64,000 bases of DNA from contig DAOLKO010000010.1 in NCBI GenBank assembly GCA_035331565.1, positions 15,682 to 79,681 of the forward strand, in the 5' to 3' direction. The notes below the pieces were generated by a model. That model ran no database searches, had not been told where the DNA came from, and worked only from the letters and a program-made list of their open reading frames with translations. Position numbers and translations under genes: made by a program. Shown piece by piece: positions 4,953 to 14,750 of this stretch (its first letter is position 1; each line of letters opens with the position of its first letter). This DNA comes from Blastocatellia bacterium. Lineage in GTDB: Bacteria; Acidobacteriota; Blastocatellia; RBC074.

Positions 4953-5225
4953 ATGTTGAAGTTTTCGCAGTTGATCCGTGTGCCGGCGGCAAGCCGGCGT
5001 GACTTTGCTCGAACGGCCGGATGGCGCTCGGATGTGTGTGATGCTCACGCAACCGGAGGTAGCCCTACTTTCCCATCTGTGCTCAGAGTTTCTTCGTCCC
5101 TGACCGCGATGATCCGAATAGTCCCTCAAATTCGGATTTTGCCGGCCTGCGAGCCTGTTGACTTTCGCAAGGGGTTGGATTCGCTCCTCGCCTTGTGCAA
5201 AGACCCGCTCGGACAAGACTCATGA
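4953..5225 (+). pseudogene. IS66-family relic: orf1-like C-terminal piece fused in frame to the first ~37 aa of TnpB (IS66 Orf2), then a stop.
   Basis: IVPQIRILPACEPVDFRKGLDSLLALCKDPLGQD is homologous to the TnpB copy at 13220 (MIQLVPQLRILLACQPVDFRKGLDSLLALCKGSLAQD). The upstream RRDFARTAGWRSDV parallels RRVLERADGARMTL at 13100. Confidence 0.6.
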
Positions 5226-5745
5226 TTCGTGGCGAGCGTTCGCGTCCGCGCGTCGGCGAATACCACCGGCCCACACAACGAAACGCCCCAGAGTCGCTCA
5301 CCGTCGCGTTGGCAGAGGGTGATTGCTTCTTTGAAGTAGGTTGCGGCACCTTGCTGATCAACCTGAGCTGTCAAGGGATTGACCAGGCACAGCGACAGGA
5401 ATATCAGGCCGAACCACCACGCTGATCTGATGGTGTCCCTGTCAATAGTTCCTCCAAATCATGCGGATCCCTGTGAAGGATTGGCCAACGGTGTTTCAGA
5501 CCGTTATGCGAGTGAAATTCAGTGGCGATTCGTACGGCCCAAGCAGCCTGTGACAACACAACACAGGCATCGGACTTTGGTTCGGCCTTGTTTTGTCCGT
5601 CCAAGCAGAAATCCGAACTACACCTTCTCGGCAAAGTAATAGTAGTTCTCTCCCTCGTCCTGGGCGTCAGTGACCCAGGTCAGGCCGGCATCGCGCAACA
5701 AGCGCTCATACGTATACTCGCCGAGGGATTGCGACCGGTGCCCGG

Positions 5746-6502
5746 TCATGGCGTCCAACCATAGGCAATGCTGGGATGGGTTTCGGGCACCGGCTGCCAG
5801 TCGCCGCCGAAGTGAATATAGGTCAGGCTTTCGTTTTTGTTTACATCGAGGAATCCGGTTTCGGTGTAGGTTTCCTTTAGCCCAAGCCTAGCAATGATTC
5901 TGTCCTGAAGGGCTTCGGCGTAGGTTTTGCCCGTGATCTTTTCGAGAATCAGCGTTAACAGGAAATAGCCCGAATTGCTGTAGGAATTCTTGGTGTCCGG
6001 TTCAAACTCCGGCGTGCCTTTGGCGGTCAGGGCGAGCATTTCATCTTTCGTGATTCCATTCTTCCAGTTTCTTTGCGGAGCCGAATCGCGCCTGACGTTT
6101 GGAATACCGCTGCGATGCGAGAGCATTTGCAGAACGGTAATTTTCGCGGCGTTCGGAACCTGCGGAAAGAACTTGTCCAGCGTATCCGTCAGCTTCAATT
6201 TCTTTTCCTCGGCGAGCTGCATCACCATCGCGGAGGTGTACATTTTGCCAATCGAAGCGATGCGGAAGCGGCTCGTCGAGGTCAGCGTTTTTTTCGTCGT
6301 TCCCTCAATCTGGGCATAACCGATGGCGCGACTGTAAACCACCTTGCTGTCCTGAGCGATGGTGAGACTTCCCATCGCTTTCTTCTTCTCAGCGAGCCGG
6401 TCAAAAAAACTGGTCGAGTTTGGCTGTATCCAGCGACTGGCCGTAGCCTGCGGTGAAGGACGCCAGCATCAGTATCGTTACGAATGGTATTTTGCTTTTC
6501 AT
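5746..6502 (-). pseudogene. Beta-lactamase-family serine hydrolase (class C/PBP-like fold), disrupted by a frameshift in an A7/T7 homopolymer.
   Basis: ATG at 6502 encodes a signal peptide MKSKIPFVTILMLASFTAGYGQSLDTAKLDQFF followed by TGA. A -1 shift in the A7 run 6403-6409 gives ...DRLAEKKKAMGSLTIAQD... joined to the listed ORF 5746..6375. That ORF has the SxxK motif (ASIGK) and the YxN motif (YSNSG). A further frame change near 5746 is possible. Confidence 0.6.
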
Positions 6503-6753
6503 CTTTGAGTCCTCCTGCTGCTAACGAGTTCCGCTTTCGTACTAGGACGGTCTTCCTGGTATTCCAAAATATCTCCCGGCTGACACGCCAACGCTTTGCA
6601 AATCGCTTCCAGTGTAGAGAGCCGAATCGCTTTGGCTTTGCCGTTTTTCAGAATGGAAATATTCGCCATCGTAATGCCGACTTTTTCGGTAAGCTCGGTG
6701 ACGCTCATCTTCCGCTTTGCCAGCATGACGTCAATGTTAATGATGATTGCCAT
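6499..6753 (-). CDS. YozG-like XRE/Cro-type HTH transcriptional regulator.
   Basis: 84-aa product with MSVTELTEKVGITMANISILKNGKAKAIRLSTLEAICKALACQPGDILEY. Its TGA stop overlaps the ATG of the downstream hydrolase gene (ATGA). Confidence 0.75.
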   Translation of the reverse strand: MAIIINIDVMLAKRKMSVTELTEKVGITMANISILKNGKAKAIRLSTLEAICKALACQPGDILEYQEDRPSTKAELVSSRRTQR

Positions 6754-6763
6754 GCGGGTCTCC

Positions 6764-7246
6764 TTATACGGTTAGGTCGTTCTCGGACTTCATCTCGACG
6801 GCGGTTTGTAAAAGTCGCTCAAACACGGCGGCGGTAGTGGCAGCCACGACCGAGACAAAAATCATCAAAAGGCCAATCATCACACCGCCTGCAATGTCCT
6901 CCTTACCGCGCTGAACGATAAAGAAGAAAGCTTCTGCCCCCACAATAAAAGCGATCAGGATCAGCGCGCAGTATTTGATCGTCCGCAAGGCTTTCACCGC
7001 GTGTGGCGAAAAGACCTCATTGGCTCCGATGTAACTCAATAGCTTGAAGGCTTGATAAAGCGCGACGAAAAAGGCAATCGAAGCCGTGTAGGCATACACC
7101 AGGAAGGGATCTTTGAAGTAAATCTCAAAGGGTGTGGCGTGCGCATTTCTGCCCTCAAGGTGAGGTTCCCAAAGCATCAGGGCAAGAGCGCCGATACCGA
7201 TAACCACGATGACGATCTGAAGAAATATCGTTGAGCTTCGTTTCAT
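6764..7246 (-). CDS. DUF2975-like integral membrane protein (four predicted TM helices), the usual partner of YozG-type HTH proteins.
   Basis: 160-aa hydrophobic product. It lies 10 nt upstream of the HTH gene on the same strand. Confidence 0.55.
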   Translation of the reverse strand: MKRSSTIFLQIVIVVIGIGALALMLWEPHLEGRNAHATPFEIYFKDPFLVYAYTASIAFFVALYQAFKLLSYIGANEVFSPHAVKALRTIKYCALILIAFIVGAEAFFFIVQRGKEDIAGGVMIGLLMIFVSVVAATTAAVFERLLQTAVEMKSENDLTV

Positions 7247-12373: not shown

Positions 12374-12912
12374 CGAAGGCGCTAGCTTGCTATTCAGGTA
12401 TGTGGGCAGAAATGCTTTTTTATCATTCAGCAACCGGCTGCGCCAGATACGCGCGCGGGTAGAGTTTGCGCAGGACGCTGTCAATCCCTTCCCGGTTATA
12501 GCGGTTTTCAGGTGCGTGCGACCTGCAACCACAGATAAACACTGATGAACACGGCCCACAAAGACATCTATTGATTCGACCCGCAACCAGAGCACGAACT
12601 CTGTGCTTTCCAGCACAGGCGGGAACATGCCGGTCGGATTGCGGCGCACACCTTCAGCATCGGAAATCCAGCCTGCCGCCGTCGGCCTTGCCAGATCGTC
12701 AGCGTCCGCAATCTCGATGTAGTGTGTCCCAGCGGTAAGCGGGCGTGACTTGCTCGATTGGCTGCTTCTCTTTCGGCAAGGCTGCGTGACGCCAAGCACC
12801 GTCCTTTCCTATCTTCTCCTGCGGCATTCAATTCTTTTTTGTGGAGGTTTCCAATGAACGATTCACTTCCCGACGATCCGGCAAAACTCCAGGCCCGCTT
12901 TGAACACTCTCG

Positions 12913-13206
12913 ATGGTTTGCCGTGTTTGCCGACTTCACCCGACCTCGCTTCACAAGCGCGCCAAACCGGCCTCAACCTCTTCCAAGCCCGACACGCCTG
13001 TTCACGAATCCGCCGGCACATCCCGGACGGATTTCTATTGCTTGTCGCCGGCCGTCTCTTTACAGCAATCGCCGCTTTCCACTCCGGCGGCGGAGAATTG
13101 TCGGCGGGTGCTTGAGCGCGCCGACGGCGCTCGAATGACACTGGTCTTACCGCAGCTTGAGACCACGGCGCTCTCGACTCTCTGCTCGAATTTCCTGCGC
13201 CACTGA
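12913..13206 (+). pseudogene. IS66-family orf1-like remnant.
   Basis: Its C-terminus VLERADGARMTLVLPQL is homologous to the fragment at 5010-5060. It lies immediately upstream of an IS66 TnpB gene. Confidence 0.35.
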
Positions 13207-13219
13207 CGGCCCAAGTCCG

Positions 13220-13699
13220 ATGATTCAACTGGTTCCCCAACTCAGGATTCTGCTCGCCTGCCAGCCCGTTGATTTCAGGAAGGGGCTCGATTCGCTCCTT
13301 GCCCTGTGCAAAGGCTCGCTGGCGCAAGACCCTTTCTCCGGCACTTTGTTCGTCTTTCGCAACCGCGCCGGCACCGCCCTCAAACTGCTCGTCTATGACG
13401 GCACAGGCTATTGCCGCATCCAGTGGTGGCCGCGGGCTTCGGACACACCTCTCCATTCGCTCGAAGCCCAACAACTCTCGGTTTTGCTCTACAACGGATT
13501 GCCCGATCAGGCAGGCGTTGCCCCCCCTGGCGCAAGCTCGATCCCAACACCTTCGCTCAAGCTGCGCGTACTACAGCTTTCACTTCCAATTCTGCCGCAG
13601 GCTCGCCTCGCGCATAAGTCCACGGCAGAGACGCTGCCGGATTGGCCCGCGCTTCGGCTCAATGCCGCATCAGCCACAACAGGTACGCCCAGGCACTGA
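13220..13699 (+). mobile_element. tnpB: IS66-family accessory protein TnpB (Orf2). The expected stop is missing and the frame reads on into antisense of tnpC.
   Basis: MIQLVPQLRILLACQPVDFRKGLDSLLALCKGSLAQDPFSGTLFVFRNRAGTALKLLVYDGTGYCRIQWWPRASDTPL is a canonical IS66 Orf2. Confidence 0.7.
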
Positions 13700-14750
13700 C
13701 TTCGTTCAACCGACACGTCTCGATCAGACTGAGCAGGATTGCGCCCACCGACGCCCCGTGCTCGTTCTTGTAAAAGAGCGCGTTCTTGCGCAGCAGCACC
13801 GCCCGCTTCAAGGCACGCTCGGCTTGATTGTTATCCAGCGGCGCATTCGCCACACTCAGAAATCGTGTCAGCCCGGCCCAGTGTTTCAACACGTAGCGCA
13901 GCGCCTGTCCCAAACTGCTGTTCGGTTCGACCAGGCGTTCGGCAAACTGCGCCTCGATCCATTCCCGCAGGTCTTTCATCACCGCGCCGCTCTTCATTTG
14001 ATGGTGCTTCAGTCGCTGCCTGGCCTCCAGCCCTTTTGTCTCGGCGTCCGTCTCGTAGACCTTCGAAACCGCATCCAGCACGACTCCGCACTCTGACGGG
14101 AAGATCGCCTCGATCTCGATGAACTTCCGCCGCGCGTGCGGTGAGGCACTTGGCTTCAATCGTCTCCTCCTCTCCGCTCCAGTTGGCCGCCGGCGCATCC
14201 GACATTTGAATCGGCCTTCCCAGATCGGCGCTCCGCACCTTCAACAACTCGTCGAGATTCTCGCCCGCGTGCCGACGACCATTGGCATAGAGCGCGATCC
14301 GATGCCCACCGACTTCAATCACCATCCCGCTGGTGTTCGTCGCTCGCCGCTCCGACTCTTTGAGTTCTTTTTTCTCCTTCAAGCACGACAGGATTTTCAC
14401 TCGCGTGTCATCGCTGAAGATCACTTCGCCATCCGCCGCCAGGCGACGCAAATACAAAGACACCGGTAGCGCCGCATCCGCCACCGCTTCGCAGCGCTCG
14501 AACTGCACCGATTCCGCCAGCGGTCAATCGCTCCTGGCAGGCCCCAGCAGCGCAAGATTTCTTGTTCGTAGCGTGTCGCCCCGACCAGAGGCTGCCCGGT
14601 CAATTGGATGAAGATGGCCGGCTCTTTGGCGGAGGCCCCGGCATCGCTTCGAGCGTCCGTTCCGGGGCCGAAAATCAAGCGATTGAGCCGCTTGATGGAA
14701 GCGTTCTTACGCTCAAGCAGCGAGGCCATCGAAAGCACCAAGCGCAGCAA
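13659..14750 (-). pseudogene. IS66-family transposase (TnpC) split over three frames. It converges on the tnpB copy, so it belongs to a different, truncated IS copy.
   Basis: The N-terminal piece has LIFGPGTDAR, the middle piece GMVIEVGGHRIALYANG, and the C-terminal piece HARRKFIEIEA...NNQAERALKRAVLLRKN. At least two frameshifts separate them. Confidence 0.65.

Follow-up and report, generated by a model that had tools for sequence, protein, structure and literature searches.

The window analysed here is a 64,000-nt stretch of a Blastocatellia bacterium genome (assembly GCA_035331565.1, contig DAOLKO010000010.1), and its interval between recG and hemB holds the remains of two insertion sequences (IS) of the IS66 family. 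One of them, relic A, is a 242-bp left-end stub, whereas the other, element B, is dead but can be followed from one terminal repeat to the other. The transposase gene tnpC of element B runs against its tnpA and tnpB genes, an arrangement that is native to the subgroup of IS66-family elements from which both remnants descend. What the interval displays is the usual decay of a genome, and no composite transposon can be demonstrated in it; its best account is probably two independent IS66 insertions, followed by both IS-associated and IS-independent deletions and rearrangement. No part of the interval is capable of transposition any more.

Element B and the spacer that separates it from hemB comprise the following features.

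12724..14949, plus strand: element B, an end-to-end dead IS66-family element of 2226 bp (intact relatives, 2676-2686 bp)
12724..12749, plus strand: left inverted repeat of B, GTGTCCCAGCGGTAAGCGGGCGTGAC; its start is the exact IS end defined by ten independent loci
12771-12790, near the left inverted repeat: subterminal repeat of B, from a motif scan
12854..13206, plus strand: tnpA pseudogene of B, with an 82-nt deletion at 12908/9, spread over three frames
13220..13617, plus strand: tnpB pseudogene of B, with a 27-nt in-frame (9-aa) deletion and a -1 frameshift (1-nt deletion) at 13522/3
13557..14861, minus strand: tnpC (DDE transposase) pseudogene of B, from Pfam DDE_Tnp_IS66, frames, indels and C-terminal comparison with intact TnpC
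14924..14949, minus strand: right inverted repeat of B, minus-strand reading GTGAACCTTCGGCAAAAAGGCGTGAA, with three mismatches to the right end from the ten loci
14950..15233, no strand: non-coding spacer of 284 nt from B to the hemB stop codon, with stops in all minus-strand frames

From the first base of its left repeat to the last base of its right repeat, element B is colinear with positions 38-2718 of contig L001, on which the intact element IS_L001 occupies 38-2723, in four blocks of 80-82% identity. Taken over its whole length, B is 82% identical to IS_L001, from which it differs by deletions of 82, 27, 1, 131 and ~240 nt, and the alignment to intact elements stays colinear across the tnpB/tnpC junction, overlap included. 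The left and right repeats of B have 17 of 25 positions in common and coincide with the ends set by flank divergence in the ten loci. The tnpA, tnpB and tnpC genes at 12724-14949 are thus parts of one element that has kept both terminal repeats and in which all three genes are dead. Since this element is colinear with intact ones of a natively convergent subgroup, tnpC is B's own transposase gene and not, as the original prediction held, a gene from another IS66 copy.

The lesions of tnpC include a start codon changed from ATG to CTG, the 131-nt and ~240-nt deletions, +1 frameshifts at 14140 and 14542, and a premature stop at 13659-13661. A frameshifted tnpC had been placed at 13659-14750; the frameshifts are real, but the pseudogene and the element extend beyond that segment, to the limits given above. 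The last open reading frame of tnpC still matches PF03050 (E=2.7e-29) and NF033517 (E=1.9e-39), the latter under the full-length cutoff, as this is a fragment. The tnpB gene had been taken as full-length; besides its in-frame deletion and frameshift, it matches the Pfam profile only over positions 2-60 of 101, versus 2-91 in intact relatives. Its lesions notwithstanding, B TnpB scores 66.5 bits with Pfam (PF05717) and 68.1 bits with NCBIfam (NF033819, cutoff 50). The Pfam and NCBIfam matches to IS66 TnpB and to the IS66 DDE transposase lie at 13157-13699 (plus strand) and 13659-14198 (minus strand), respectively. Between the tnpC genes of B and IS_L001, differences per codon position amount to 0.123/0.093/0.333, and the same pattern separates two live elements; this concentration at third positions implies that most of the divergence of B predates its death. 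Homology and end-motif scans of the whole window revealed no tnpB or tnpC pieces and no IS ends beyond those of A and B.

The convergent arrangement recurs in intact relatives. B TnpB has hundreds of homologs (best identity 85%, 137-141 aa), and the DNA around three different ones, from three metagenomic lineages, has the same layout each time: tnpA (131-144 aa) and tnpB occupy one strand, the gene for a 552-594-aa IS66 transposase occupies the opposite strand, and tnpB and tnpC overlap tail to tail by 49-58 nt at their 3' ends. The element ends could be set to the base by flank divergence in ten loci (left GTGTCCCAGCGGTAAACAGGCGTGAC, right ...GCCGCAGGCTCAC), which gives a length of 2676 bp. 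For one intact lineage, the different flanks number at least three on the left and eight on the right, and this lineage is therefore multi-copy and mobile. Exact 8-bp target duplications of intact relatives were seen twice, as GTTCAATT in a left and a right flank from different contigs, and as GATGTACT on both sides of an element that interrupts a kinase/Tricorn gene and is contained in one contig.

By their proteins these convergent elements are members of the IS66 family: the TnpC of intact relatives scores 219.8 bits with NCBIfam transpos_IS66 (cutoff 180) and matches Pfam DDE_Tnp_IS66, and their TnpB scores 94.3 bits with IS66_TnpB (cutoff 50). They nevertheless stand outside the canonical subgroup. 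With canonical IS66 and IS679 (Agrobacterium, E. coli) they share the TnpC and TnpB families, 8-bp target duplications, terminal inverted repeats of ~25 bp and a length of ~2.7 kb. They differ in their TnpA, for which no Pfam or NCBIfam model match and no match in plasmids was obtained with an intact element, and in their ends, which start with GTGT or GTGA, unlike the canonical ends that we take to start with GTAA. The main difference is the tnpC gene on the opposite strand with its overlap of 46-58 nt with tnpB. The canonical co-directional tnpA-tnpB-tnpC order is seen neither in B nor in any of the intact relatives inspected, all of which have a convergent tnpC. In IS66 and IS679 the three genes are co-directional and translationally coupled, according to PMC3469429, citing Han et al. 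2001; with tnpC on the other strand, such coupling to tnpB is impossible.

RefSeq annotation shows this convergent, overlapping layout for two Legionella IS66-family elements as well, one carried by the plasmid of Legionella pneumophila LPE509 (NC_020522.1) and the other contained in NZ_CP082851.1, a record of 2647 bp from L. longbeachae. These share with the acidobacterial elements a similar subterminal motif upstream of tnpA, with TnpB 53% and TnpC 34% identical, but they are distant in sequence, belong to Gammaproteobacteria and are plasmid-borne, whereas the copies in the window are chromosomal and dead. Similarly distant relatives are co-directional in Thiodictyon (by annotation) and in Vibrio and Klebsiella (by the coordinates of the matches). 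The ISBst12 group (e.g. ISDge4) has the same transposase family and 8-bp duplications; it differs in having a single open reading frame without tnpA or tnpB, both of which are carried by the elements described here.

No description of a convergent IS66 layout was found by full-text literature searches, which did not extend to ISfinder or the main IS66 family review, and its status as a new variant, already visible in RefSeq annotation, is provisional. As a tentative proposal, which we hold a little short of probable, the convergent tnpAB/tnpC layout may define an undescribed, transpositionally active IS66 subgroup of Acidobacteriota and Legionella plasmids, in which the transposase would be expressed from the opposite end of the element, uncoupled from TnpA and TnpB. 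Control by antisense or transcriptional interference could then arise from the conserved overlap of 46-58 nt, and the window would hold two decayed lineages of the subgroup. A natively inverted transposase gene is easily misread as a collision of copies when the canonical layout is expected, and the uncoupled, overlapping arrangement poses a small, testable question about the regulation of IS66-family transposition.

Some further observations concern the subgroup as such. A subterminal motif, TTTCGGC(A/G)AG(G/C)CTGCGTGAC, is conserved upstream of tnpA in both phyla, in the acidobacterial elements as well as in Legionella. The subgroup (loci L001-L016, L174-L177, L084 and L173) is active in soil metagenomes, with many flanks and exact 8-bp duplications, and occurs on Legionella plasmids too. 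All six L001-type contigs, from different samples, stop 37 nt outside the left IS end, and this flank (L001:1-37) starts with GTGAACCGCCAGTAAGG, which resembles an IS66-type repeat; it may reflect a nested insertion into another IS.

Relic A lies just downstream of recG and is followed by another truncated gene.

4858..4954, plus strand: native recG 3' tail, hairpin-rich, the last left-side DNA that is syntenic with relatives
4978..5219, plus strand: relic A, what remains of the left end of an IS66-family element (242 bp)
4978..5003, plus strand: left terminal inverted repeat of relic A, GTGTGCCGGCGGCAAGCCGGCGTGAC
5222..5419, minus strand: N-terminal fragment of an exported-protein gene, ~66 aa with a signal-peptide-like start, cut at the relic A junction

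The left repeat of A matches that of B at 24 of 28 positions and is the sole other 28-mer with no more than eight mismatches on either strand of the 64 kb, while the end-motif core CGGYAANNNGGCGTGA occurs in the window only at 4987, 12733 and 14940, i.e. at the left end of A and at the left and right ends of B. Behind its repeat, relic A has an internal deletion of ~420 bp that removed most of tnpA, followed by the tnpA 3' end (~5006-5103) and tnpB codons 1-37 (5109-5219). Positions 5006-5030 match 462-486 of the intact element IS_L009 at 23 of 25 bases, and 5067-5218 match 523-674 of the same element at 113 of 152.

That A and B carry homologous tnpA-end and tnpB-start sequences on the same strand, as originally proposed, was confirmed at the nucleotide level, with 76% identity in the ungapped comparison of 5107-5219 with 13218-13330 and 147 of 222 identical positions in the gapped alignment of 5006-5219 with 13109-13330. 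The break after TnpB codon 37 was likewise placed correctly (at 5219), but A begins with its terminal repeat at 4978 and not at 4953. Counted from the terminal repeats, the homologous stretches are 4978-5219 and 12724-13330. At the protein level (tblastn), the tnpA end gives E=3e-8; TnpB codons 1-37 are 78% identical (E=5e-15).

The tnpB codons of A are 76-78% identical to those of B, IS_L001 and IS_L009, with differences biased to third codon positions. Being about equally distant from B and from both intact lineages, A represents a third lineage rather than a sister copy of B. Mutual identities among A, B and the intact elements range over 75-82%, and the concentration of substitutions at third codon positions indicates that they diverged while still functional.

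The exported-protein gene directly after the break in A has 382 homologs at E<=1e-3, the longer of which (283-457 aa) match only at their residues ~10-75; the window copy thus lacks the remainder of the gene. Its position suggests that what is missing from A and from this gene was lost in a single deletion.

The whole locus is 99.9-100% identical in three Blastocatellia metagenome-assembled genomes and several metagenomes. One metagenomic contig, L017/P0031 (ERZ773281 NODE_279758, 970 nt), was considered as an alternative junction in which the B tnpB pseudogene is fused to a thiolase-like N-terminus, and was rejected. It is 99.85% identical to window 13308-13961, then passes across a short shared word into an unrelated high-GC acyl-CoA dehydrogenase/thiolase locus at 1.6x coverage, and is most likely an assembly chimera.

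Comparison with less similar relatives reveals breaks of synteny on both sides. Genes upstream of recG are kept in relatives with RecG 66-92% identical. In the nearest of these, L030 (JAJNQA010000104.1; RecG 92% identical), an 81% alignment runs through window position 4951 and then gives way to a different IS. Neither the bracketed genes nor hemB follow recG in the relatives, with up to 10 kb of recG-downstream sequence inspected. On the other side, hemB-fur-ahpC-CMD is kept in three of three relatives with HemB 92-94% identical; homology of the window to these three ends at the hemB 3' end, the 284 nt of 14950-15233 have no similarity to their hemB-downstream DNA, and the fur, ahpC and CMD genes are absent from the whole 64-kb window. 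The comparison of relatives for the same gene order without IS, as the original prediction suggested, therefore leaves no relative with the bracketed genes after recG and a broken hemB neighbourhood here. Given the broken hemB synteny, the lack of these genes after recG in any relative and racemase and D-aminoacylase homologs of at most ~62% identity, the stretch from recG to hemB has been rearranged and is specific to this lineage; IS ends lie at or close to both of its breakpoints.

The different IS of the nearest relative is itself an IS66-family element, located ~23 nt from the site at which relic A starts (L030:12149-12390, corresponding to window 4858-4977). With GTAACTGCTCAGCC at its end, it agrees in 13 of 14 bases with the ISDge4/ISBst12-group terminal repeat. 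The 3' flank of recG, which has a conserved tail of 95 nt rich in hairpins, seems to be a hot spot of IS insertion. The tail includes a 28-nt hairpin (4878-4905) that is unique in the window; an Rfam scan of the whole window gave one tRNA only (51026-51099) and nothing in the conserved recG tail.

Target duplications are missing both around B and around the unit from A to B. Element B is flanked by GATGTAGT and AACCAAAC, and the unit from A to B by GTTGATCC (4970-4977) and AACCAAAC (14950-14957); inspection of the A and B flanks revealed no reverse-complement or offset duplications either. Of the terminal features proposed originally, three IS ends were found (4978, 12724 and 14949, those of B with GTGT/GTGA starts), but no 8-bp duplications. 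Element B is not old enough to have lost a duplication by drift, as its substitutions are still coding-like and six of eight flank bases differ. The absence from B of the duplication that intact relatives make is therefore a sign of one or more deletions or rearrangements that ended at the IS. Taken together, the internal break of A and the left flank of B, a gene fragment without its other half, show that deletions or rearrangements ended at or within IS DNA in no fewer than two places.

In the history that we consider probable, two elements of the convergent subgroup would have inserted independently into an accessory, rearrangement-prone recG-hemB junction. Both would have been inactivated, and the present patchwork would be the product of deletions and of one or more rearrangements that stopped at or within an IS. 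One deletion would have removed the right 90% of A and most of the neighbouring exported-protein gene; the target duplication of B would have been lost and the ancestral hemB-fur-ahpC-CMD neighbourhood dissolved; other deletions would have truncated the ADOP permease and D-aminoacylase genes between the two elements. The originally suggested IS66-mediated rearrangement thus holds as far as the rearranged interval, the missing duplication of B and the break points at IS are concerned, and we infer the causal role of the IS.

Several observations weigh against this history. No empty-site or intermediate allele exists among the near-identical copies of the locus, so that the order of events, too, is our reconstruction. 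The content downstream of recG is poorly syntenic among relatives generally, so that this break need not have been caused by an IS. An L001-type reference locus likewise lacks an evident duplication, and its absence is therefore not unique to B. Finally, the composition of 5220-12723 (tetranucleotides and GC) matches the rest of the window and provides no independent sign of acquisition.

Both IS could instead be passengers in a fluid accessory region, in which breaks, pseudogenes and deletions arose independently of them. The differing content downstream of recG, seen also in relatives without these IS, would fit such a region, as would the ADOP stub, both ends of the D-aminoacylase fragment and the hydrolase frameshifts, none of which has IS sequence at its junctions; the different IS at nearly the same site in the nearest relative suggests a hot spot over causation. 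What makes this explanation unlikely is that two junctions fall exactly at or in IS sequence, 5219/5220 within tnpB of A and 12723/12724 at the left end of B, where it abuts a half-gene, and that B lacks a duplication while its coding-like substitutions argue against an age sufficient to randomise six of eight flank bases.

Decidedly less probable still are the remains of a composite transposon, as first proposed, in which a ~10-kb unit, with A's left and B's right repeat as its outer ends, brought the amino-acid genes to the recG-hemB site and then decayed. Compound transposons of the Tn5/Tn10 type likewise have two direct-orientation IS copies with outward-facing ends around cargo genes. The outer ends at 4978 and 14949 are present in the correct orientation, the similarity of the A and B left repeats makes cross-recognition conceivable, the cargo is lineage-specific (best non-self identity 61% for the racemase and 62% for the D-aminoacylase, versus 92-94% for RecG/HemB relatives), and synteny breaks near both ends. 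However, the unit lacks an 8-bp duplication (GTTGATCC vs AACCAAAC) in a subgroup that makes exact ones, and its two IS, both dead, belong to different lineages (76-78% identity, with codon-biased divergence). The 284 nt without a match in relatives between the right end of B and hemB imply that the right breakpoint is not at an IS end. The unit was found only within the same population (99.9-100% identity) and in no other context, and its composition is not distinct.

The last explanation derives the tnpC at 13659-14750 from another IS66 copy in opposite orientation that ran into a tnpA/tnpB copy; from sequence alone, such a tnpC would seem foreign next to the co-directional order described in PMC3469429. 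This origin is refuted: all intact relatives inspected, inserted at many independent sites, have the convergent and overlapping genes of B, the alignment of B is colinear across the junction, and a single left and a single right end flank the whole.

For annotation of this genome, two decayed IS66 insertions translate into one pseudo-IS (12724-14949) and one 242-bp stub (4978-5219), rather than three IS fragments or a transposon; the recG-hemB interval that contains them is a decaying accessory region specific to the lineage. The DNA bracketed by A and B comprises the following genes and gene remnants.

5618..6503, minus strand: serine hydrolase (beta-lactamase family) pseudogene, split over three frames with at least two frameshifts
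6499-6753, minus strand: HTH_26 regulator, intact (Pfam E=4.9e-25)
6764-7246, minus strand: DUF2975 membrane protein, intact (Pfam E=2.3e-30)
7324..7518, plus strand: ADOP-family permease stub, the N-terminal 64 aa of ~800 (TIGR03434 positions 8-36 of 803)
7608-8753, minus strand: M20 hydrolase, apparently intact (NCBIfam, Pfam)
8757-9869, minus strand: enolase-superfamily racemase/OSBS, apparently intact (NCBIfam, Pfam)
9906-10742, minus strand: GNAT, apparently intact (NCBIfam, Pfam)
10784..11311, minus strand: D-aminoacylase (Amidohydro_3) fragment, positions 354-454 of 472 and 393-474 of 517 in two profiles
11318..12370, minus strand: Glu/Leu/Phe/Val-type amino-acid dehydrogenase, apparently intact (NF035922 positions 4-342 of 346, E=6e-113, below the model cutoff)
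12425..12723, minus strand: frameshifted C-terminal gene fragment ending in ...NRYNREGIDSVLRKLYPRAYLAQPVAE*, which abuts the left end of B

These profile matches agree with the block of a frameshifted hydrolase, ADOP stub, D-aminoacylase fragment and GNAT/racemase/M20 cluster that had been recognized between the two IS remnants. In the hydrolase pseudogene, only the middle piece matches the Pfam Beta-lactamase profile (positions 18-206 of 329), and the signal peptide and C-terminal piece lie in other frames. The D-aminoacylase fragment lacks ~350 N-terminal residues and the last ~40, and the dehydrogenase also matches Pfam ELFV_dehydrog_N and ELFV_dehydrog. Neither Pfam nor PDB gave a match for the fragment at 12425-12723, whose N-terminal half is absent from the far side of B; Pfam, NCBIfam and PDB searches gave nothing usable for 5222-5419, 5404-5634, 5618-5758 and 12371-12799. 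The closest non-self homologs of the racemase and D-aminoacylase are those cited above. Tetranucleotide similarity of 5220-12723 to the rest of the window is 0.939, against 0.944 +/- 0.025, and GC content likewise does not differ.

In distant metagenomic loci, GNAT and racemase genes are adjacent in 15 of 40 cases and racemase and M20 genes in 5 of 40. Such adjacency would fit the N-succinyl-amino-acid racemase route, which we take to convert D- to L-amino acids. The GNAT-racemase-M20 and dehydrogenase genes may still be functional. Directly after the stop codon of the ADOP stub, and ~50 nt from the M20 3' end, lies a palindrome (7521-7558) with a perfect 15-bp stem (GAGCGGGTGTTATGC / GCATAACACCCGCTC); it occurs only once in the window and might act as a bidirectional terminator or mark the scar of a deletion.

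Outside the interval, a pair of genes for an AAA_15/AAA_21 ATPase and a DUF4276 protein (window ~850-2650) lies directly upstream of recG and is 50-60% identical in two relatives (L031 and L032). In three relatives (L032:5969-7714, L067 and L042), a gene that is 56-58% identical to window 62926-63999 sits between the GFO_IDH gene (window 2-748) and recG; the similar gene 62 kb away in the window is either a paralog or a sign of further rearrangement.

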